From a virus (lineage: Duplodnaviria > Heunggongvirae > Uroviricota > Caudoviricetes), in the IMG/VR virus record IMGVR_UViG_2541047680_000004: 64,000 nt of DNA; one strand, given 5' to 3'. How positions within the stretch are numbered: the stretch's first letter is position 1; every line of letters starts with the position of its first letter. Made by a program: the position numbers and the translations under genes. The notes beneath the pieces are model-generated. The model had not been told where the DNA came from, searched no databases, and was given only the letters and a program-made list of their open reading frames with translations. Positions 2,349 through 59,917 of this stretch are shown in pieces.

Positions 2349-2435
2349 TGGCGGAGAGTAATGGAATCGAACCATCATCGTTTGCACAATGGGACGGTTT
2401 TCAAGACCGCTTGAGCACCATGCTCCCTACTCTCC
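2349..2435 (-). tRNA. tRNA-Ser (anticodon UGA), class II
   Basis: Hand-folded: acceptor GGAGAGT/ACTCTCC, anticodon loop CTTGAAA, long variable arm, T-loop GGTTCGATTCC, discriminator G + encoded CCA; 87 nt. Confidence 0.75.
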
Positions 2436-2755
2436 AGCTATTGTGATGGTCGGTGCTGAACTCCGACACAGGGTTGTAGCAAGCCCCGCAAAGCGCGCAC
2501 TACTGTAGTTGCGGCACATCAGCCTGTGCATTCATCACAATGGTAAGATCACTACCTTTCGACCAGTCATTGTGCACATGAACGACGATTAACCGTAATG
2601 ATATTATCGTTGTGTTGTGAAGCCAGATGCTTATCTTCTGGTTGCTTCAAAGAGCTGCACTTCCTCACAACGGTAAGAGCACTGGTCTGACTCTATCGAT
2701 TTACGGCCTTGTGGGTCAGTATCGCCGATTCGCCCAATGCTCTTACCTGTTGTGT

Positions 2756-2831
2756 TGGTGCCGGTTAACGGACTTGAACCGCTGGCCATTCGCTTACAAA
2801 ACGACTGCTCTACCAACTGAGCTAAACCGGC
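2756..2831 (-). tRNA. tRNA-Thr (anticodon UGU)
   Basis: Acceptor GCCGGTT/AACCGGC, D-arm GCTCAGTTGGTAGAGC, anticodon loop TTTGTAA, T-loop GGTTCAAGTCC, encoded CCA; one mismatch at base of anticodon stem. Confidence 0.75.
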
Positions 2832-2835
2832 AATT

Positions 2836-2922
2836 TGGTGGGGAGTGATGGAGTCGAACCACCCGAGTCGCCATGACAGTAGATTTACAGTCTACACCGC
2901 TACCTCTACGGACTAACTCCCC
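2836..2922 (-). tRNA. tRNA-Tyr (anticodon GUA), class II
   Basis: Acceptor GGGGAGT/ACTCCCC, anticodon stem GTAGA/TCTAC with loop CTGTAAA, long variable arm, T-loop GGTTCGACTCC, encoded CCA; sequence differs from the E. coli host tRNA-Tyr. Confidence 0.8.
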
Positions 2923-2927
2923 TAAAT

Positions 2928-3002
2928 TGGCGATGGTGGGTGGATTCGAACCACCGACCAGTTGGTTAACAGCCAACTGCTCTACCGCTGAGCTACACCA
3001 TC
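2928..3002 (-). tRNA. tRNA-Asn (anticodon GUU)
   Basis: Perfect cloverleaf: acceptor GATGGTG/CACCATC, D-arm GCTCAGCGGTAGAGC, anticodon stem GTTGG/CCAAC with loop CTGTTAA, T-arm GGTGGTTCGAATCCACC, encoded CCA; differs from host tRNA-Asn. Confidence 0.85.
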
Positions 3003-3780
3003 AATTCAGCACTGCCAGTATTTATTACTCAACAGTGCCAATCGCGACGGTTTAGTTTCTGCCAGGAAACGCACCGCTACTTGCACTTTTCGTTAGTGCC
3101 AGACGCTTTCGACTTCGCTCAATAGTAGAAGGCAAAATCTTTAAGTAGATGATGTTTCTGAGGACAGCACCTACTTTGTAATTTATACAATGTGATGTAT
3201 GGAATCATTTGTTGTGAAAACAGGCACCAATGGCAACAGTGGTTAAACCTACACAACAATCCCGTCTTCACAACGTTGAGGCCACTACTCCGATTGAATG
3301 TTTGCCCAACATGTTACATATCAACGCTCGCCGGTATCTCTGTGAATAGAACCTTAGAATTGATAAAAATGTAATGGCCTCAACGTTGTGTGCTGGCTAA
3401 CCATACCAGCCGGGCTACGTCGCCGCTTTTTAACCCAGTATAAACGACATAATTGAACAAAATGACGTAACAGGATGGGCGGTCAGTGGCTAAGAATCCG
3501 GGAGTCATATGGAGTTGAAAATATACCAACCGCCCATTCTGTTACTTCATCGGAGGGAACATGAATGTTCCCTCCTGCGTTCTGCAATCACACTCGCTCA
3601 GTGTGTCCCATTTCGGTAACGAGGCTGGAAACTGACCTCGCTGGTGTTTGGCTTATTAGGCTACTGCCAGATAGACTTCTTCGTTTGCACTTGTATTTAA
3701 GTTCAAACAGTCGCGTCTCAACGAAAACAAAGTCATCTTATACACAAAAGATAAGTAAGTAAATACTTATCATTGTATTT

Positions 3781-14289: not shown

Positions 14290-14957
14290 TATTCTTCTTC
14301 CTCCAGACTCAACAGATAATCTACAAATTCTTCAAACTCGGCTTCCGCCTTTTTGTCGCGCTCGCTACCGGTCATTTCAAAGATAGAACGACCAGACTCT
14401 TCCGCATCATCATAGACGTTGCGGTTATATAGATTGACTGGCGCAGACTCGATGCCAAACGTCTCAACAATCTCTTTAGCCGCCAGAATGCGAGACACTT
14501 GTGATGGCAAAGCCGGGCACTGGTTCATGACCGCGCGGACCTTCACTTTATCGTTTACATTACGAACATTGTCGATAATAGGATCGATGTCACGCAGAGA
14601 TTTCAAATCACGACGCTTAGGACGAAGCGGGATAATGATAACGTCGGCCATCAGCATCGCTTGTCGCTGAATTTCGGAGTCAAAGCCACCAGCATCTACC
14701 ACTACATACTCAGCTCTACCCTGAAGCGATTTTAGGTGCTTAATGATGTCATCCTGAACGTATGCAAAAGGAATCAGCTCAAGGTCTTCGTTCTGTCGAC
14801 GGTCTTCACACCAGCTCGTTGTCGTGCGCTGAATATCTATATCGGTGATATAAACCTTCTTCTTCTTTTTGACTTTCAGGCAAACGGCAATTTGCTGGGC
14901 TACGGTGGATTTGCCTGGCCCGCCCTTTGTGCCGCCAACCACAAAGATCTTGGTCAT
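14289..14957 (-). CDS. parA: ParA-family partition ATPase (short, type Ib-like)
   Basis: Deviant Walker A GGTKGGPGKST, Walker B-like VVVDAGG; 222 aa. Confidence 0.75.
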   Translation of the reverse strand: MTKIFVVGGTKGGPGKSTVAQQIAVCLKVKKKKKVYITDIDIQRTTTSWCEDRRQNEDLELIPFAYVQDDIIKHLKSLQGRAEYVVVDAGGFDSEIQRQAMLMADVIIIPLRPKRRDLKSLRDIDPIIDNVRNVNDKVKVRAVMNQCPALPSQVSRILAAKEIVETFGIESAPVNLYNRNVYDDAEESGRSIFEMTGSERDKKAEAEFEEFVDYLLSLEEEE

Positions 14958-14992
14958 TGGAGAGTTCCCTTTGCGTATATAATTATCGTCTG

Positions 14993-15005
14993 AAACAACT
15001 TGTTT
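14993..15005. promoter_or_regulatory. palindromic operator-like site AAACA-N3-TGTTT upstream of parA
   Basis: aaacaacttgttt 36 bp upstream of parA start. Confidence 0.5.
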
Positions 15006-51180: not shown

Positions 51181-51603
51181 ATGAAATACTCGCTTCTCCC
51201 TCTACTAACGTTACCAGTGTTGATGCTTACCGCGTGCCAATCACGCCCAATATCAATCCATGACGCCAAACCAGCACCGCAGGCCAAAGTGTTCAAGTAT
51301 CAAAGCGCAGCGCCAGCTACGTTGGTGGTAATGAGAGACACAGGTTTTGTAGGAGCTGGATGTGATGCTTCCATTTTCATCAACGGCGAAACTGTCGCAA
51401 AACTGGCTACAGGCGAAAAAGCGACTTTCCATTTAAATGCCGGAGAATTAATTGTGGGTGCATCTCTTGAAGGTGCAGGTTTATGTGCTCTAAACCCCGC
51501 TCGTCAAGAGCGAGAAACGACTCTGAAGAATGGAGACACAAAAGCGTTCAGGGTGTTCACCAGCAATTCTGGTGACATCGACATTCTGCCAACAACTCTG
51601 TGA
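51181..51603 (+). CDS. lipoprotein
   Basis: Signal peptide MKYSLLPLLTLPVLMLTA-C lipobox. Confidence 0.55.
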   Translation: MKYSLLPLLTLPVLMLTACQSRPISIHDAKPAPQAKVFKYQSAAPATLVVMRDTGFVGAGCDASIFINGETVAKLATGEKATFHLNAGELIVGASLEGAGLCALNPARQERETTLKNGDTKAFRVFTSNSGDIDILPTTL

Positions 51604-51607
51604 TGAC

Positions 51608-52132
51608 ATGACAACCAAAGATATTACCTACGGTATCCAAGCTGAACTCTGGCCGCGAGATTACACTAACGTTGAAAAACTACTGATGTTCTGGCGCAGA
51701 GAACAAATTCCTGTAAGGGTCACTCTCGAAGATGGCCAGGCGTTTTGCATGTACGTTTATGGCCTCATGCCATCTCGTAACAAAGTTGACCTTTGCCCAG
51801 CCCCTTTTGACAAAGAAAATCGTATAAGGCTCCCACTTGAACGCATTAGTACAATTGAATCAGGTGTGGTTGACAGTATCGCTCACGATTTCAAAGGTCG
51901 ACTAACAGTTCACCCTGATTATGTCGATAATCGGCCATCACGCCGCGATTTTTTTGCAATTTGCAACCAAGCCTACAAAGCAAACAAATCTATAAGGGTG
52001 TACATGGCGGATGGCCGTGAAATTGAGGGGGTGTCAGCAGGCGCAGATGCTTGTCAGGTTACACTACGTGTCGAGAACGGTAGAAAAATAGTTGTTTTGT
52101 TCGATTGGGTTGAACGAATTTTGCCTTTTTGA
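51608..52132 (+). CDS. hypothetical protein
   Basis: 175-aa ORF (internal Met with reasonable spacing after lipoprotein stop). Confidence 0.45.
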   Translation: MTTKDITYGIQAELWPRDYTNVEKLLMFWRREQIPVRVTLEDGQAFCMYVYGLMPSRNKVDLCPAPFDKENRIRLPLERISTIESGVVDSIAHDFKGRLTVHPDYVDNRPSRRDFFAICNQAYKANKSIRVYMADGREIEGVSAGADACQVTLRVENGRKIVVLFDWVERILPF

Positions 52133-53956: not shown

Positions 53957-54370
53957 TTGTCTTTAACTCACTCCAACAACATAAAAATAAGCGCCAAAAT
54001 AACGCCATAGACGCGCTTTTATATCCTTACCAGTACATACCCATTACTTAACACATTAACGCGCTTAAAACGCGTTATATTGCGCTATAGAGTATGGTTA
54101 ATCATTGGCTTTTAGTCTTGCTTTATGATCCGCGTTTATTTGTCGGCGCGGATCGGCATTTTGTTTTGTTCCGTATCCGCTCGCGTATTATGTGCGCGTG
54201 ATTTTTCACATAATCACACCACTTAATCACGTATGTGATTATGCTACGAAAGAAATCTGGATGTCTCAGGCGACGAAAGTCATCATAATTTTCCCCGCTC
54301 ACCTGTCCGACAACCGCTGGTTGGATTCCACCAGCTTCCCGATGTTTTTTCTACACAAAGGCGAATGCAG

Positions 54371-54450
54371 CCGTTTCCCGAAAAAATCCTGGCCGTTCCC
54401 CGTCGGCTCATGAATACGTTCCTCGCCGTTTCTGAAAATTTCCCTGCGGC
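54371..54450. repeat. iteron cluster A (3-4 direct repeats, consensus CCGTTTCCCGAAA)
   Basis: ccgtttcccgaaaa / ccgttccccgtcgg / ccgtttctgaaaat / ttccctgcgg spaced about 22-33 bp. Confidence 0.6.
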
Positions 54451-54495
54451 AGCTGGTGGCTATAGAGAAAGGGCCGTTTCTGGCCCTCTTCTCAG

Positions 54496-54978
54496 TTACA
54501 CGCCATCAAGGATGTGGATGCGGTTGCTTGCGTATACATTCAGCATAAAGTTAGCGCAAAACAGTTTCCATGTATCAACGCCAGCGGTATACGTAATGTT
54601 TTTGCATTTAATCGCATTGTTGGCGATCCGCATCCCCTGCGATACTGCTTCATCGTCGGAAAATTTGAACGACGATTGAGTTTTAATCCAGACAGAAATC
54701 TGCGTAGCAAACTCAATCAGCTTAGACTGGCAGAATCGCCCGGAGCGTACCGGGAAGACGAACGTTCCGAATCCAGAATTAACCACATATGCTTTCTCAA
54801 ATACCCTCGAGTAACGACGATTGCCAATGATGTCGCGTGCAATAATGCATTTTTCTTGTGCTGACAGTTCTACCGTCTCATTGTCGCGCCATGCACCAAG
54901 TACTCGTTTTTCAATGTCAGAGAACGTTACAGCGATATTGCCATGTGCGGGTGCGTTTACAGTAGCGATAAAATTCAT
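54496..54978 (-). CDS. hypothetical protein (small-gene cassette 1)
   Basis: 160-aa ORF; operator palindrome at 54,999-55,011 upstream. Confidence 0.45.
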   Translation of the reverse strand: MNFIATVNAPAHGNIAVTFSDIEKRVLGAWRDNETVELSAQEKCIIARDIIGNRRYSRVFEKAYVVNSGFGTFVFPVRSGRFCQSKLIEFATQISVWIKTQSSFKFSDDEAVSQGMRIANNAIKCKNITYTAGVDTWKLFCANFMLNVYASNRIHILDGV

Positions 54979-55328
54979 GATTAATTCCTTATCGTAAATA
55001 ACAAATTGTTTTCTTGTTGGTGTTAATTATCGTTGTACGAATAAGGCGTCAAAGTGGAAAGTTGCGGTAGCCGGACGGGAACAGGTGGGTTTGTCGGTTG
55101 CCTGGAGGTAAGAGGTTGGTGTTTTTAGCCTGCGGGAAACAGGATGGTCATTTAAGGCCACCAATGCTGATGGCCTTAATAATTATCGACCGATTACGCT
55201 AAGGATCTTTTCCTCAACTGATTTGTTGTTGCGACTAAACTGCCTTGCGTATCTGATGACAGAAGAGGCGTTTTGCTTTCTGACCATCTCGGCTCTTTCC
55301 TTCAGGCGTTTCTTGAAATCGCCCATAT

Positions 55329-55703
55329 TTACCACCAGGCGCAGAAGGTCAGTCTGTTATTGTGAAAGTCGTGGTTCCTGATCAGGTCTTCCACAAGTTT
55401 TTTCAGCTTATCCACGTCATGCCAGTAACCTTCGTCGTACTCCTGACTGCCGAAGAAAAAACCTTCCCGAGTAGGCAAGTACTCTTCGCAATTGCTTTCG
55501 TTTATGTGCATCAAATGAGCTTTCAGAAGACAAATGTCATTCATCGTTAATTCTAAAAGCTCACAATTTTCGACTTCACCTACGTTGCGCTCCATCCACC
55601 CAACGAGCGCATTGAACTTACGGAAGTAAGCAACCTGCTTTCTGGATGCCTCGTTATTCAGATCGTTTTTAGGCTGTGTCTCGATATAGATATCAAGTCC
55701 CAT
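55329..55703 (-). CDS. hypothetical protein (small-gene cassette 2)
   Basis: ORF with AAGGAA RBS before ATG at 55,703; operator-like palindrome at 55,763-55,775. Confidence 0.4.
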   Translation of the reverse strand: MGLDIYIETQPKNDLNNEASRKQVAYFRKFNALVGWMERNVGEVENCELLELTMNDICLLKAHLMHINESNCEEYLPTREGFFFGSQEYDEGYWHDVDKLKKLVEDLIRNHDFHNNRLTFCAWW

Positions 55704-55820
55704 GATGGTTTCCTTATTAAGTTGCTTCAGTGAAATCATTTTCACAAATCAGATAAGGCAGAAAACAAATTGTTATCGGGCATAATAAAATGGCGCGGTT
55801 TACGCGCCATTTAAAGAGGA

Positions 55821-56216
55821 TTAAGCGAATACGCTTTCAGGGATTAAGGTGTCGGCAGGAATGCCAGAGGTAATGCGCAGACCGTACTGGCCAATCCAGG
55901 TGGTGCTGGTGTTCAGGCTGGAGGCGAATACGGTGTTAACCATATTCATCATGGTTTCAAACACCTCTTCATCAACCTGGCGGAAGTAGTTCTCGATTTT
56001 CAGCAGCAGCGGGTCAGTTGCATCGAGAATGGACTGGTATTGAGTCGCGTACTCGCCGTCGGAGGCATCACCTTTACGCACGATCGTACTGGCCTGTACT
56101 TCGGCACCAGTTTCGGTGTTGTACGTAACAACGGTGATTTTTGCCACATTCTTACCTTCGGCGGTTTCAGAGGCATAGTAAACATCAACTGTCAGTTTTT
56201 CGCGTTTAACGGTCAT
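55821..56216 (-). CDS. hypothetical protein (small-gene cassette 3)
   Basis: ORF with GGAGAG RBS before ATG at 56,216. Confidence 0.45.
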   Translation of the reverse strand: MTVKREKLTVDVYYASETAEGKNVAKITVVTYNTETGAEVQASTIVRKGDASDGEYATQYQSILDATDPLLLKIENYFRQVDEEVFETMMNMVNTVFASSLNTSTTWIGQYGLRITSGIPADTLIPESVFA

Positions 56217-56342
56217 TTCACTCTCCGTAGTGTATTGGTTATTTTTATATTCTATGATCGTAAGTATGTACTTACAATACAAAAAAGCCCCGTAAGGATG
56301 GCGGGGCTGTCGTACTGTCGACTAATTACCACTTGCACATTA

Positions 56343-56654
56343 TCAGGCTATTGCCATCACTGATGCTCTCTGAATTTCTTGCTGGGCCACGCGGTTAACT
56401 TCCATCAAGGCCAGTTCGAGCTGATGTTCCGGCCACATTCTTTGAAACGCCATCCAGCCTTTTCCACGCTGGCGACGAACATTCATTACATAACGAGTAA
56501 AGGTGTTTTTATCGAAAGACACCGCTGTTTCACGGAACAGACGAATAGAGGTTCCATTGGCAACGATGTCCAGCAAAGTTAATTGAGCAACCAGCGCAGG
56601 CTTCTCTTTTCTCTTCTGGTCTTTGTCCAGACCAAGAACCAATGATTTTTTCAT
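56343..56654 (-). CDS. hypothetical protein, possible DNA-binding regulator (small-gene cassette 4)
   Basis: ATG at 56,654 lies 12 bp downstream of palindrome 56,666-56,678; terminator hairpin after stop. Confidence 0.45.
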   Translation of the reverse strand: MKKSLVLGLDKDQKRKEKPALVAQLTLLDIVANGTSIRLFRETAVSFDKNTFTRYVMNVRRQRGKGWMAFQRMWPEHQLELALMEVNRVAQQEIQRASVMAIA

Positions 56655-56665
56655 CACAACTCCGT

Positions 56666-56678
56666 AAACAACTTGTTT
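56666..56678. promoter_or_regulatory. palindromic operator-like site AAACA-N3-TGTTT
   Basis: aaacaacttgttt immediately upstream of gene start 56,654. Confidence 0.5.
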
Positions 56679-56808
56679 TCTCAATGGCGTAAATAATACC
56701 AGTAAGAAAACGGCTACAAAGCATAATGATCAGGTGTATGAGCGATATGCAGGTTCTTCCCTGCGGCTACAGATGAAGTTAAGCCAGCATTGCTGGCTTT
56801 GGTTGGGT

Positions 56809-57138
56809 TTACTCGAATACTTCAAGAAACTCCTGAACGTCCCAATGCTGGACGAGGTGAAGATAGACCTTAGAAATCACGTCATTTTCGCTATCGCATG
56901 TGAAGTAGTACTTCTGGCTGCGGTTGTATGTGTCCACACAAAATTCGCTCATATCCATAAAGTCAGCATCTTCACCCATGTCGCAAATCATCAAAGCAGG
57001 TGCATCATCACGAGTCATCAGCTCCAGCACCCATCTTGAATTAATCAGAGTGGAAGACCAACCTTCCAGCTCATAGAACTGGTCAAACTCTTTTTGAGTT
57101 AATTTCTTGATTTGGTTGATGTCGATATTTGCAAACAT
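56809..57138 (-). CDS. small acidic protein (small-gene cassette 5)
   Basis: 109 aa with about 22 Asp/Glu; ATG at 57,138 is 13 bp downstream of palindrome 57,151-57,163. Confidence 0.45.
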   Translation of the reverse strand: MFANIDINQIKKLTQKEFDQFYELEGWSSTLINSRWVLELMTRDDAPALMICDMGEDADFMDMSEFCVDTYNRSQKYYFTCDSENDVISKVYLHLVQHWDVQEFLEVFE

Positions 57139-57150
57139 AAAGCAATCCTT

Positions 57151-57163
57151 AAACAACATGTTT
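57151..57163. promoter_or_regulatory. palindromic operator-like site AAACA-N3-TGTTT
   Basis: aaacaacatgttt. Confidence 0.5.
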
Positions 57164-57499
57164 TCTTGATGGTGTTATTATCGCAATAACGCACAGGCGA
57201 AAAAGGATTTTATTCCGGTGAATATGGTTTTGGCAGTGAGTTTTCAGGTTCAGTACCGAGTATACTTTTTACATTATTCTGATTTAGTGGCCGAAGGTGG
57301 CTGGTGGGCAGAATAATCCTCTCCCCGAAAACCTACTGAAATCGATTGTGACCCGTTGGCTGTCTGGCACAATTACGCTGTAGCTGGGCATTCAGAGGGA
57401 ATCCAGCGGTAAGCAAGTCCGCCTACGTGAGCGCCTCTCTTCTTCCCGCACATTACAGGTGGGTAGCCGCAACTCTCCCTCTCGCTATACCGGTACGCC

Positions 57500-57635
57500 G
57501 CCGTTCCTGAACCGGCATCGAGCCTTTTCCCGAAATCCACACAGGCAACTCGACCGTTTCCCTGAAAACCTCCAGCCGTTCCCCGAAGGCAACCCAGCCT
57601 TTTCTGTAGCGGGATGCAACCTTTTCCCTGTATGG
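57500..57635. repeat. iteron cluster B (6 direct repeats, about 22-bp period, consensus CCGTTTCCCGAAA)
   Basis: gccgttcctgaacc, gccttttcccgaaa, accgtttccctgaaaa, gccgttccccgaagg, gccttttctgtagc, accttttccctgta at about 57,501, 57,524, 57,555, 57,576, 57,598, 57,621. Confidence 0.65.
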
Positions 57636-57749
57636 ACCGAAGGCTGACCGTAGGGGTTTTACGGGGGATAAAATCAGGAGTTGAATAAATACGAAAAAGG
57701 AGGCGACACCCCTCCTTCCCTCCCCACTTATACATACCTGGCTTCTTCG

Positions 57750-58600
57750 CTATACATGTTGTGTTTTCTTCGTGTTTTATCTGTCTCAACCTCTCTATAG
57801 GCGTTAATGCTCACTCCTTCCAGAACCTTCTATACGGCGACTATTTCTGTTGGTGAATTGGGTGTGTTGTTCTCTCTGTCGGTGTATGTGGTTTCGTTCG
57901 TTTTGCGGTGGTTCTTCTATGGGGTGTTCTCGTCGTTTTGGTGATTGTTCTTCTCCGTGTATGGAGTAATGGCAGGTGGGCGATTCCTTTCGTTATTGTG
58001 TTTGAGTTGTTTGTCTGGAGTGTGTGAAAGGCTTTTGTAGTTATTCGTGTATTGGGTAATGGCGTTTCCCGTGATTGTTATGTTTCGTGTCTTTTGGGAT
58101 TGAGAGAAACCTTGCGGTTACAGGCTTCGTTGGGGTTTCAGTGATTCTGGTGTTTCTTCGCTGTTTGGGTAATGGCGTGTCGTGGGTATCGCGCGTATGA
58201 ATGTTTTCGGATTGCCTGTGAAAGTTAGGTTGGTTGTCCGGTAGCCTGGGGAGAAGAGGTGGGTCTTTTCGGTAGCCTGCCATAAAGAGGTTGGTTGTTT
58301 TGGGTAATGGTATATGTGTTATTTAGTTGTTTTGTTATGCCTGAAAATAAGTTGTTTATATGGTTGTGTAACGCAACGGGAGCGATTTTGAGCGTGTGTT
58401 TTTGTTGGTAGTGTGTTGAGTCGTCTGTGGTGAAAATTGGACGCTGTGGCGCTATCTGCTGCGTAGAATTACGGGTATAAGAAGTGATGTGTGATAACGT
58501 CAATTTTTTAGACCAAATCGGGAGAAAGCGTTGATGTTTCGTTGATCTGTTATTTAGTTGTTTTCTTATTGGTATAAACAACCATAACCTATTGATATTT
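57750..58600. repeat. GT-skewed non-coding tract with short dispersed repeats
   Basis: Plus strand almost devoid of C-runs, rich in G/T; repeated tgggtaatgg (x4), gttatttagttgtttt (x2), ggtagcctg...agaggttgg (also at 55,060-55,130). Confidence 0.55.
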
Positions 58601-58700
58601 AATGATGTGATTGCTGGTATGGGAGGGGAGTAGTGGCGATCAACGGGTTCTTATAGAAAAGAATCAAATTGTGACCGCCATTATCAATAAGTTGCAACCG

Positions 58701-59382: not shown

Positions 59383-59568
59383 TTAGATGAGATGGTCTAA
59401 TTCATCATCTATCATGGCTTTGACGCTGGAGTCATTCACTCCATATTTATTTATGAGCTGTTTCAGCTCTGGCGAAAACTGAAGGTAGATATCGTGAGCG
59501 TTTTTCACTGTAGGTTCAACGCCACGCATTTCAAGCGCCTTTAGTAGATATGAGTCTTCTTTAAGCAT
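59383..59568 (-). CDS. hypothetical small protein
   Basis: 61-aa ORF. Confidence 0.3.
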   Translation of the reverse strand: MLKEDSYLLKALEMRGVEPTVKNAHDIYLQFSPELKQLINKYGVNDSSVKAMIDDELDHLI

Positions 59569-59604: not shown

Positions 59605-59904
59605 TTACCATTGCCAGCACTCAAGCCCTTCAACGACCGGTGCGCCACAATCAAAATGTACAGAGTCAAAGCCTACATCAAGTACTTTCTGAATGTTCGC
59701 AATCGCGCCCTCGGATATACCATATCGACGCAACTCATCTATCCAGTCATCGTCCTGTAACCCGGCGTGGACAATGCAACCGTACTCAATTTGTGAAACC
59801 CAATCCAGCTCATTGCTTGCGATCATGAATCGGCGAGCATCTTCCTCTGATGTATGAGATGAGCTGATCAATGCCACCTGGTAGGCTTGGGTAATGTTCA
59901 ACAT
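59605..59904 (-). CDS. hypothetical protein
   Basis: ORF with ATG at 59,904 located 14 bp downstream of operator palindrome 59,918-59,930. Confidence 0.4.
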   Translation of the reverse strand: MLNITQAYQVALISSSHTSEEDARRFMIASNELDWVSQIEYGCIVHAGLQDDDWIDELRRYGISEGAIANIQKVLDVGFDSVHFDCGAPVVEGLECWQW

Positions 59905-59917
59905 TTCAACCACTCCA

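Follow-up and report, generated by a model that had tools for sequence, protein, structure and literature searches.

In the C1 regulon of P1 one short operator, an asymmetric 17-mer, is repeated round the plasmid prophage, such that scattered lytic units are silenced together. KorA/KorB of IncP plasmids and Omega of pSM19035 use short palindromic or repeated operators at many promoters, by which maintenance and 'transfer' genes are coordinated. Variable single-gene units that carry their own promoter and terminator and are joined at gene boundaries characterize the morons and mosaic modules of lambdoid phages and mycobacteriophages. Anti-defence islands (T7 0.3/Ocr, ArdA/KlcA of plasmid leading regions and the accessory regions known from enterobacteriophages) are clusters of small, often acidic orphans that are expressed early from a variable locus.

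The cassette described here, about 2.7 kb in length, resembles each of these systems in part. It lies within a 64,000-nucleotide stretch of DNA, called the window in the following, which belongs to an SSU5/pHCM2-type phage-plasmid: over positions 54000-58000 it shares 99.1% identity with pECOH89 and 97.4% with phage Cyrano. The element is a circular, SSU5-like plasmid prophage of E. coli of about 110 kb, such that the cassette is not situated near an element end as had been supposed. Phage-plasmids of this type occur commonly in E. coli, Shigella, Salmonella Typhi and Klebsiella and carry ESBL genes, e.g. CTX-M-15; hardly any work exists on their regulation or on their accessory genes.

As in the C1 regulon, one candidate operator recurs at many promoters of lytic units. 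The palindrome AAACAANTTGTTT with at most one mismatch is found 11 times in the window compared to 0.56 expected copies (0 of 100 shuffled sequences reached 11) and 18 times in pECOH89. Unlike the C1 operators it is symmetric, spans 13-19 bp and is found, in addition, before a parA-like gene and the terminase operon. The copy before this ParA-type partition gene may be likened to KorA/KorB and Omega, while the two ParB/Srx-domain genes of the element, unlike those systems, adjoin the terminase genes. The single-gene units share their anatomy and variability with morons. In the lysogen, however, RNA levels stay close to background for four of the six genes, and the lytic-type operator of the element is present in the units. 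Compared to mosaic modules, the recombination joints fall on conserved regulatory spacers, which are able to act as homology anchors. Clustered small, often acidic orphans at a variable locus are likewise typical of anti-defence islands, but no member of a known family was found in the cassette or next to it, and the predicted fold of the acidic protein g5 is neither that of Ocr nor that of ArdA. We favour, with a probability of about 0.55, that the cassette is an accessory region in the lytic programme of an SSU5-type phage-plasmid, silenced by a repressor and shuffled by recombination.

Layout of the cassette

Six small genes, all annotated as 'hypothetical', lie on the minus strand. Five of them, g1 to g5, had been predicted as consecutive genes; the sixth, g2b, had been overlooked.

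54496-54978, minus strand: g1, 160 aa, basic (pI 9.2), phrog_1641
55186-55326, minus strand: g2b, basic 47-aa ORF directly after the g2 stop codon (TAAATATG), coupled to g2
55329-55703, minus strand: g2, 124 aa, acidic (pI 4.9), phrog_7971
55821-56216, minus strand: g3, 131 aa, acidic (pI 4.4), phrog_2473
56343-56654, minus strand: g4, 103 aa, basic (pI 10.5), phrog_5125
56809-57138, minus strand: g5, 109 aa, acidic, phrog_7645

For g2, RefSeq places the start at 55739, which lengthens the gene; the PHROG profile covers residues 13-136 only and a TGtGAAAAT -10 element overlaps that ATG. The small g2b is a homologue of CYRAN_109, which is annotated in phage Cyrano.

Hairpins, expected between several of the genes, were found after every unit, and two of them are canonical intrinsic terminators:

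54465-54493, minus strand: hairpin after g1, GAGAAGAGGGCC-agaaac-GGCCCTTTCTC
55152-55179, minus strand: strong hairpin after g2b, TTAAGGCCA...TGGCCTTAA, without U tract
55787-55811, minus strand: canonical terminator after g3, AATGGCGCG-taaac-CGCGCCATT followed by TTTT
56281-56307, minus strand: canonical terminator after g4, GCCCCG...CGGGGC followed by TTTTTT
56781-56799, minus strand: hairpin after g5, AAGCCAGC-AAT-GCTGGCTT, without U tract

The three hairpins lacking a U tract are strong as well (folding energy of the 3' stretch, -22 to -25 kcal/mol). Between 53.5 and 59.5 kb, 15 terminator-like sites were obtained compared to 5.7 expected. Each unit furthermore possesses its own upstream region, and the palindrome precedes g1, g2, g4 and g5. 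The units look like separate transcription units rather than an operon, in agreement with the original prediction.

Promoters and a candidate operator

The core form of the palindrome is AAACAAnTTGTTT, the extended form (AGA)AAACAAnTTGTTT. Its dyad symmetry is perfect around a free central base. In pECOH89 all copies but one (17) precede a start codon of the minus strand by no more than 66 nt. At no fewer than nine sites the -10 box is found at a fixed distance of 13-14 nt, while the distance to the ATG varies between 12 and 66 nt. In the cassette the following elements were assigned:

54999-55011, minus strand: g1 operator palindrome, one mismatch; the -10 box lies 14 nt upstream, the ATG 21 nt downstream
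55026-55053, minus strand: g1 promoter TTTGAC-16-GATAAT, found as TTGGAC-16-GATAAT in SSU5 and Klebsiella
55763-55775, minus strand: g2 operator palindrome, one mismatch, 6 nt after a TATTAT (55782-55787)
56249-56277, minus strand: g3 promoter TTGTAA-17-TAGAAT, whose spacer holds a perfect second palindrome GTAAGTAcaTACTTAC (56260-56275)
56666-56678, minus strand: g4 operator palindrome, a perfect AAACAAGTTGTTT; the ATG follows after 12 nt
56693-56698, minus strand: g4 -10 box TATTAT, 14 nt upstream of the palindrome core
57151-57163, minus strand: g5 operator palindrome AAACATGTTGTTT, one mismatch; the ATG follows after 13 nt
57177-57182, minus strand: g5 -10 box GATAAT, 13 nt upstream of the palindrome core; module also in SSU5 and Klebsiella

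The g2 copy can alternatively be placed over the -35 region of the extended -10 element TGtGAAAAT (55738-55746). The second palindrome, that of the g3 promoter, is over-represented as well, and the -35 hexamer, the spacing and the -10-like hexamer of this promoter are kept in SSU5, Klebsiella and E. coli variants. The evidence for the promoters is the conserved module and not a generic sigma-70 scan, which gave no enrichment (9 compared to 10.7 expected).

The combined promoter/palindrome module also heads the homologues carried by SSU5, Klebsiella pJN2-26, Enterobacter pCP102 and a metagenomic relative, and the palindrome is conserved in relatives from Salmonella, Klebsiella and Enterobacter. 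Judged by its symmetry, its phasing to the -10 box and its conservation across genera, the palindrome behaves like an operator. It is not a mark of the cassette, since it also heads the helicase, parA-like, nrdB, terminase and further units across the whole element, which makes it a candidate element-wide operator.

A common unit plan can be proposed from these data: a sigma-70-type promoter, a palindromic operator, a short leader, a small ORF and a hairpin. For g1, g4 and g5 the operator begins 13-14 nt after the GATAAT/TATTAT -10 box and would therefore be located at approximately +5 to +22 of the predicted transcript start. In the g2-g2b unit it would overlap the promoter, and in g3 the different palindrome would take its place within the promoter spacer. 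A dimeric DNA-binding protein encoded by the element may occupy the operators in the plasmid state and thereby silence the units. Upon infection or induction they would fire alongside the remaining units under this operator, among them those of helicase, nrdB and terminase. Because the operator also precedes the parA-like gene and the terminase operon, its binder may regulate globally in the manner of KorB or Omega instead of being the master repressor of the lytic programme. The Cyrano homologue of the palindrome-headed parA-like gene (window position 14957) is expressed in lysogeny (count of about 50).

Gene products and their exchange between relatives

The cassette products are orphans and, judged from their sequence variation, under purifying selection, with weak evidence in the case of g2b. 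The best conserved one is g1, with 70% identity to SSU5_117 and a pN/pS (dN/dS) of 0.13-0.18; for g2 and g5 the ratios were 0.12-0.18 and 0.09-0.15, respectively. For g3 and g4 a pN of 0.24-0.29 was found with saturated pS. Searches of Pfam, NCBIfam, PADLOC, PHROGs and the PDB (sequence and fold) provided no known function for the cassette proteins; those encoded at the alternative slots likewise match no family of known function in Pfam, NCBIfam or PADLOC. Sequence and profile searches of g1-g5 against the PDB gave no match below an E value of 0.39. Among the cassette products no signal peptides and no toxin, virulence or resistance domains were detected, and an Rfam scan over 53-61 kb returned nothing relevant. 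The RefSeq label of the Enterobacter homologue of g1, DUF1554, corresponds to a sub-threshold match only (E 0.021). Weak matches of g3 to CARF/Csm6 proteins (Pfam Cas_APE2256, E 0.04; PADLOC Csm6, 0.032; TIGR02619, 0.029) were dropped, because they were limited to 3 near-identical E. coli sequences among the 12 family members.

The gene g4, limited to SSU5-like phage-plasmids, had been taken for a small DNA-binding regulator. Aca-like or Cro-like regulators have a helix-turn-helix, but neither the Pfam search nor the AF2 model of g4 shows one. The model instead predicts four long beta strands (residues 20-32, 35-45, 52-63 and 66-75), a C-terminal helix (76-102) and a basic disordered tail.

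Homologues of g3 occupy late or moron positions in phiKO2 (gp62) and in temperate phages of Klebsiella and Proteus; in other temperate phages they are located downstream of Q or between lysis and terminase genes. Together with the missing operator before g3, these positions run counter to the reading of the cassette as part of the silenced lytic programme.

Exchange of the units is seen among relatives. Among 32 E. coli viral contigs, there are cases in which other alleles take the place of g4/g3 or g3/g2 (75%, 57% and 35% identity) between flanks that are 96-100% identical. The breakpoints at 56660-56700, ~55820, ~56280 and ~55160 correspond to promoter/operator and terminator spacers. Gene order is altered in Enterobacter pCP102, and relatives carry alternative slot genes, most of whose proteins have a pI of 4.2-4.9, similar to g2 and g3. 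In SSU5, Klebsiella and Enterobacter, g1 and g4 form a syntenic core. Conserved promoter/operator and terminator spacers would thus serve as homology anchors by which units are exchanged, reordered, gained and lost.

Function, expression and alternative readings

Within the favoured silenced and shuffled accessory region, the small, soluble, strongly charged products without enzyme signatures would most likely bind macromolecules of the host or of competitors, in takeover, counter-defence or exclusion. This assignment is drawn entirely from their size, their charge and the absence of enzyme motifs. That the cassette acts in anti-defence or host takeover is a reasonable and plausible guess. In a screen with AntiDefenseFinder, elements of the SSU5 group were nearly free of known anti-defence genes, with only Rad present in 16-22% (10.1101/2025.09.12.675607), and any new ones must therefore be among such orphans. 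More tentatively, g5 and perhaps g2, g3, the 93-aa phrog_1845 protein and SSU5_111/112-type proteins could be founders of new counter-defence or takeover families, the cassette then being an anti-defence island of the SSU5 group that diversified by unit exchange via the promoter/operator spacers; we consider this possible, at well below even odds. If no product has such an activity, the region would be an ordinary variable orphan-gene patch of a temperate phage. The locus offers three handles: a candidate for a global operator, by whose phased promoter module the silenced regulon is delimited; a map of the small-gene region and its exchangeable units; and a selection of orphan proteins, real, conserved and structured, as counter-defence or takeover candidates, with g5 in first place.

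A different role is suggested by the repeats that bracket the cassette. Three direct repeats of about 30 nt (CCAnCCTnTT..CAGGCTACCG.AAA) were found upstream of the g1 promoter:

55062-55154, minus strand: three ~30-nt direct repeats

This family recurs at 58235-58301, with a copy number that differs among relatives. Similarly, a GGGAAACGGCTGG-type array with a phase of ~21-22 nt at 57500-57640 has 3-4 further units at 54368-54450. Conserved arrays around the cassette could point g1 and g4 to a role in DNA transactions, at odds with the favoured reading. In that case g1, g4 and perhaps other products would act on the arrays, and the region might serve as an origin, a centromere or a locus for copy control and not in interaction with the host. 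The occurrence of the same repeat families on both sides, a 1.5-kb non-coding stretch with 70% column identity across genera (exceeding that of g3) and the basic character of the syntenic pair g1 and g4 are in agreement with this. However, the RepB/RepA replicon and parA are located outside the cassette, and none of its proteins is Rep- or Par-like. Moreover, relatives swap or lose units freely, and plasmids that are otherwise identical have g4 alleles with a difference of 25%, which would be unusual for an origin binder and its sites. Overall we regard this role as unlikely. A 2026 preprint on phage-plasmid copy number concerns a different family.

The original prediction had likened g5 to DNA-mimic anti-restriction proteins. 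The underlying charge was reproduced: 22 of the 109 residues are Asp or Glu (20.2%), the net charge is -14 and the pI 4.2, which places g5 third in negative charge density among approximately 128 ORFs of pECOH89. An Ocr/ArdA-type mimic within an anti-defence island would also fit the strong purifying selection on g5, the operator at its promoter, due to which g5 is probably expressed early, and the lack of recognisable anti-defence genes in SSU5-group elements. The likeness did not extend to family or fold. No match at E <= 1 was obtained for g5 in Pfam or NCBIfam, which places it outside the known mimic profiles (Ocr, ArdA, gp5.9 and similar), and the PDB sequences gave none below an E value of 0.4. 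Its AF2 model (pLDDT 84.8, pTM 0.80) is a compact alpha+beta domain that resembles neither the elongated helical Ocr dimer nor the three-domain ArdA and has no significant structural neighbour in a PDB fold search. Acidity is, furthermore, common locally (g2, g3 and most alternative slot proteins, pI 4.2-4.9), and searches of Pfam, NCBIfam, PADLOC and PHROGs revealed no recognised anti-defence family among the cassette genes, those of the alternative slots and the neighbouring genes. Homologues of g5 were found in 229 Escherichia/Shigella plasmids, together with rare relatives of 25-36% identity inside the same cassette type; a word-indexed search, an exhaustive search of 1.84 billion representatives and tblastn against phages and plasmids gave none outside SSU5-type cassettes. 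An acidic protein that is like no known DNA mimic, g5 may plausibly have an anti-defence role; a mimic of the Ocr/ArdA type appears doubtful. Nearby, the ORF at 59383-59568 gave a sub-threshold match to T7 gp5.9 over 17 residues (E 0.0057).

Expression data bear on whether the units are morons, i.e. lysogenic-conversion genes expressed from the resident plasmid to the benefit of the host. With its own promoter and terminator per unit between conserved genes, the cassette has classical moron anatomy, and the g3 homologues of other temperate phages are found at the positions given above. In RNA-seq data of LF82/Cyrano, essentially an uninduced lysogen, normalised counts of 12.8, 12.2, 17.0 and 5.7 were reported for g5, g4, g3 and g2, respectively, at a local background of ~9.6 (PMC9928086). 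The corresponding genes CYRAN_105-108 are thus at 0.6-1.8 times background, where morons would be expressed from the repressed prophage. Not fully silent are the homologues of g2b (CYRAN_109, ~6 times background), listed among the Cyrano 'morons' (PMC9928086), and of g1 (CYRAN_111, ~2.7 times). Given also that four unit promoters carry the operator common to lytic genes and that signal peptides, toxins and virulence or resistance domains were not found, we find a moron function for the units improbable, and the silenced accessory region remains our preferred reading.

The palindrome could finally be an RNA-level site in the 5' leader for a translational repressor instead of a DNA operator. FljA represses fliC via the fliC mRNA leader, and a conserved FljA-family gene (51530-52132; PF03614, E 2.5e-84) with an Hfq-like stretch is only 2.4 kb away; in most units the motif, A-rich and then U-rich like Hfq-type sites, is situated downstream of the predicted start site and ahead of the ribosome-binding site. 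We give this little credence, since the dyad is perfect with a free central base, the phasing is to the -10 box and not to the start codon, some copies are located upstream of or over the -35 region, and none of 9 variant sites in the pECOH89 copy list has a compensatory change; an RNA hairpin is ruled out for the cassette copies, which as RNA are unstructured (0 to -0.7 kcal/mol).

For the operator-bound silencing favoured here, candidate binders are the FljA-like protein, a small partner of ParA and a helix-turn-helix protein beside the integrase gene (weak HTH_19, E 8e-4). The latter is expressed in the lysogen; in the LF82/Cyrano data a helix-turn-helix 'putative repressor' reaches a normalised count of 96 (PMC9928086). 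An S24 peptidase is an unlikely binder, being a 129-aa protease domain without a DNA-binding domain; its gene is preceded by a perfect LexA box.

Organization of the cassette and its operator

The 4 kb around the cassette of small genes (54496-57163, minus strand) showed 99.1% identity to the 111.7-kb CTX-M-15 plasmid pECOH89 and 97.4% identity to Escherichia phage Cyrano, the plasmid prophage of E. coli LF82. A total of 716 plasmid records matched this region, and the cassette genes are labelled 'hypothetical protein' in all records. The matching elements are SSU5/pHCM2-type phage-plasmids, which are circular in the cell. One flank of the cassette is a plus-strand gene block adjoining a helicase gene and two ParB/Srx-domain genes; the other is a 1.5-kb non-coding stretch followed by a DUF5983 gene and metG. 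The proposed location near an element end does not hold, the cassette sitting internally between these flanks of a circular element.

The five minus-strand ORFs of the original prediction were present as described. We added a sixth gene, g2b, starting 2 nt past the stop codon of g2; the Cyrano annotation includes it. The start of g2 was re-set, because the PHROG profile covers only the part from the new start and the annotated ATG is overlapped by an extended -10 sequence.

Genes of the cassette (window coordinates)
54496-54978, minus strand: g1, best-conserved cassette gene, 70% identity to SSU5_117
55186-55326, minus strand: g2b, 47 aa
55329-55703, minus strand: g2, 124 aa with the start at 55703
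55821-56216, minus strand: g3
56343-56654, minus strand: g4
56809-57138, minus strand: g5, 109 aa, acidic

The promoter-linked palindrome AAACAANTTGTTT (the operator; 19-bp duplex form AGAAAACAAGTTGTTTTCT) was found 11 times in the window with at most one mismatch, compared to 0.56 expected copies; pECOH89 as a whole has 18. By our own count from gene and motif coordinates, 17 of these 18 copies lie no further than 66 nt in front of a start codon. In the sense orientation, most copies form part of a module that begins with a weak -35 and a GATAAT/TATTAT-type -10, continues with 13-14 nt (consensus AACACCAAnA) and AGA-AAACAAnTTGTTT, and reaches the start codon after a further 12-36 nt. The same module precedes homologous genes in Salmonella phage SSU5, Klebsiella pJN2-26, Enterobacter pCP102 and one metagenomic relative. 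Eight of the 18 copies fall within the 5.5 kb spanning g1 to the DUF5983 gene, the part with the highest density of single-gene units. Among the units headed by the operator are those of a DnaB-like helicase, a parA-like ATPase, a cobT-like gene, nrdB, an HD-domain gene, a DUF4942 gene and a TerB-like gene; two copies each precede the DUF5983 (YeeW-like) gene (59605-59913, minus strand) and the small-terminase/late operon. The underlying observation is correct and beyond chance, and the idea of separately regulated units was largely right, except that the operator is genome-wide and not specific to the cassette.

The operator is phased to the -10 box, not to the start codon, has dyad symmetry about a free central base, lacks compensating changes in nine variant copies and has a negligible folding energy as RNA (0 to -0.7 kcal/mol). 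These four features argue for a putative duplex-DNA site for a dimeric protein. Such a site would lie at about +5 to +22 of the predicted g1, g4 and g5 promoters and over the predicted g2 promoter. On these grounds a site acting in the RNA leader is less likely.

No AAACAANTTGTTT-type operator was found in the region upstream of g3. Its conserved promoter (TTGTAA-17-TAGAAT) holds in the spacer a perfect second palindrome, GTAAGTAnnTACTTAC (56260). With at most 3 mismatches this motif occurs 21 times in the window versus 1.8 expected (e.g. at 3755, 12534, 30431, 36918, 49207 and 56260), and about 25 sites are spread across pECOH89. They are mostly located 10-55 nt before start codons, also inside the structural operon (portal and tail genes). 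The long form, ATAAGTAAGTAnnTACTTACTTAT, would fold as RNA at -11 kcal/mol; the second palindrome may act on DNA as an operator or on RNA as a processing or translation signal.

Every unit has a hairpin on its 3' side. Those after g4 and g3 are canonical intrinsic terminators, while the other three are strong hairpins lacking a U tract. Terminator-like sites in the cassette region numbered 15 compared to 5.7 expected; a generic promoter scan of the region gave no enrichment.

Exchange of units and flanking repeats

Among 32 E. coli viral contigs carrying g5, single units were replaced while their neighbours remained 96-100% identical. Examples are g4 at 75% identity together with g3 at 57%, g3 at 35% where g2 and g2b are missing, and additional genes separating g2b from g1. 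Sliding identity located the breakpoints within the regulatory sequences between the genes.

Breakpoints of unit replacement
about 55160: g2b hairpin and the repeats before g1
about 55820: g3 terminator and g2 operator
about 56280: g4 terminator and g3 promoter
about 56660-56700: g4 promoter/operator

In SSU5 and Klebsiella two different small acidic proteins fill the g5 slot and a 93-aa acidic protein (phrog_1845) fills that of g2, and in Enterobacter the gene order is g4-g5-g3. None of the alternative slot genes has a known function.

The non-coding stretch upstream of g5 (57170-58700) has 70% column identity across the E. coli, Salmonella SSU5 and Klebsiella elements and is not expressed in the LF82 lysogen. 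It may serve as an origin, a centromere or a regulatory array.

Repeats and sites in the non-coding stretch and around g1
57500-57640: GGGAAACGGCTGG array, phased at about 21-22 nt; 3-4 further units at 54368-54450, within the stretch 54000-54480
57694-57720: terminator-like hairpin
57959, 58049, 58162 and 58297: GCCATTACYCMAWAC boxes
58235-58301: 30-nt CCCACCTCTT..CAGGCTACCG repeats; also at 55062-55154
58345: operator copy

The copy number of the 30-nt repeats upstream of the g1 promoter differs between near-identical E. coli elements (L026 5140-5310 versus L023 5748-5888). The array is therefore a non-coding repeat, and not a small ORF that might be called there.

Expression in the lysogen and candidate regulators

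In LF82 transcriptomes from overnight LB cultures (supplementary table, PMC9928086), the Cyrano homologues had normalised counts of 12.8 (g5), 12.2 (g4), 17.0 (g3), 5.7 (g2), 57.9 (g2b) and 25.5 (g1). Compared to a local background of about 9.6, which we derived from the authors' fold values (PMC9928086), four of the six genes (g5, g4, g3 and g2) are essentially off in the lysogen. The same data give counts of 96 for an HTH 'putative repressor' and 148 for an S24 peptidase gene. The g2b homologue stands at about 6 times background with the upstream g2 at background, a contrast that hints at an internal promoter or at an antisense or small RNA over the g2b stretch.

An operator also lies before the parA/MipZ-like ATPase gene (14957-14993, minus strand), whose Cyrano homologue is annotated as ParA partition protein. 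This gene is expressed in lysogeny, such that the operator is not confined to silent lytic genes. As the operator heads the terminase operon as well, the regulator may act globally, like KorB or Omega, and not purely as a lytic repressor. One candidate binder is a small HTH protein adjoining the integrase gene (RS00100/CYRAN_45), which has a weak HTH_19 match and is expressed in lysogeny. Further candidates are the uncharacterised partner of the parA-like ATPase (RS00190), whose own promoter bears the operator, and a FljA-family protein 2.4 kb from the cassette. The latter (200 aa, 51530-52132, plus strand) matches PF03614, 'repressor of phase-1 flagellin', with E 2.5e-84, contains an Hfq-like stretch and is conserved in the SSU5 and Klebsiella elements; it is possibly an RNA-level regulator of the element.

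Cassette proteins and their likely function

The cassette genes are under purifying selection, with pN/pS values of 0.09-0.15 for g5, 0.12-0.18 for g2 and 0.13-0.18 for g1; for g3 and g4 pN was 0.24-0.29 with pS saturated, and g2b carries too few substitutions for judgement. Searches of Pfam, NCBIfam and PADLOC gave none of the six proteins a match of known function. Five belong to function-unknown PHROGs, and g2b had no PHROG match. g3 alone has homologues outside the SSU5 group, namely phiKO2 gp62 and genes in Klebsiella and Proteus temperate phages, where they are placed between lysis or Q genes and terminase genes. Weak matches of g3 to CARF/Csm6 were judged to be chance.

The strong acidity of g5 was confirmed (22 Asp/Glu in 109 residues, net charge -14, pI 4.2), and it ranks third for negative charge among about 128 ORFs of pECOH89. 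It is restricted to Escherichia/Shigella SSU5-type plasmids (229 records at at least 90% identity). When 1.84 billion representatives were searched exhaustively without a profile, only three remote relatives (25-36% identity) emerged, and those with readable context lie in the same kind of cassette. The DNA-mimic fold suggested for g5 was not borne out, and such a role is unlikely; likewise g4, proposed as a DNA-binding regulator, has no HTH.

By its anatomy, regulation logic and population behaviour the cassette reads as an accessory region of a temperate phage that is silenced by a repressor and shuffled by recombination. Its closest analogues are the dispersed C1 operators of the P1 plasmid prophage, the global operators of IncP plasmids, the variable early regions that are often the home of counter-defence genes, and classical morons, from which it differs in that four of its six genes are off in the lysogen. 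Its function is most likely host takeover or counter-defence via small binding proteins, which we hold with modest confidence. A real rival is that the conserved basic g1 and g4 proteins act on the repeat arrays bracketing the cassette. Regarding counter-defence, a published AntiDefenseFinder screen of SSU5-group elements detected a single gene, the anti-retron Rad, which 16-22% of those from Escherichia/Shigella carry, and nothing in those from Salmonella (10.1101/2025.09.12.675607). By that screen the cassette proteins belong to no known anti-defence family, and unrecognised anti-defence genes are likely hidden among such orphans. The main value of the cassette is that it defines an operator regulon and supplies a few orphan proteins that can be tested.

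A 61-aa ORF after the DUF5983 gene (59383-59568, minus strand) matched the RecBCD inhibitor gp5.9 of T7 below threshold over 17 residues (E 0.0057, 17.0 bits versus a cut-off of 24.5), which is probably due to chance. The phage-plasmid also carries a full-length metG (methionyl-tRNA synthetase, about 60-62 kb) and four clustered tRNA genes (2349-3002, minus strand: Ser-tga, Thr-tgt, Tyr-gta and Asn-gtt). Just past the right end of the window (about 83.9 kb in pECOH89), the gene of the 129-aa S24 peptidase is preceded by a perfect LexA box, TACTGTATGCATATACAGTA, which is likely an SOS input to induction; in LF82 expression of this gene is strong and rises further in macrophages (PMC9928086).
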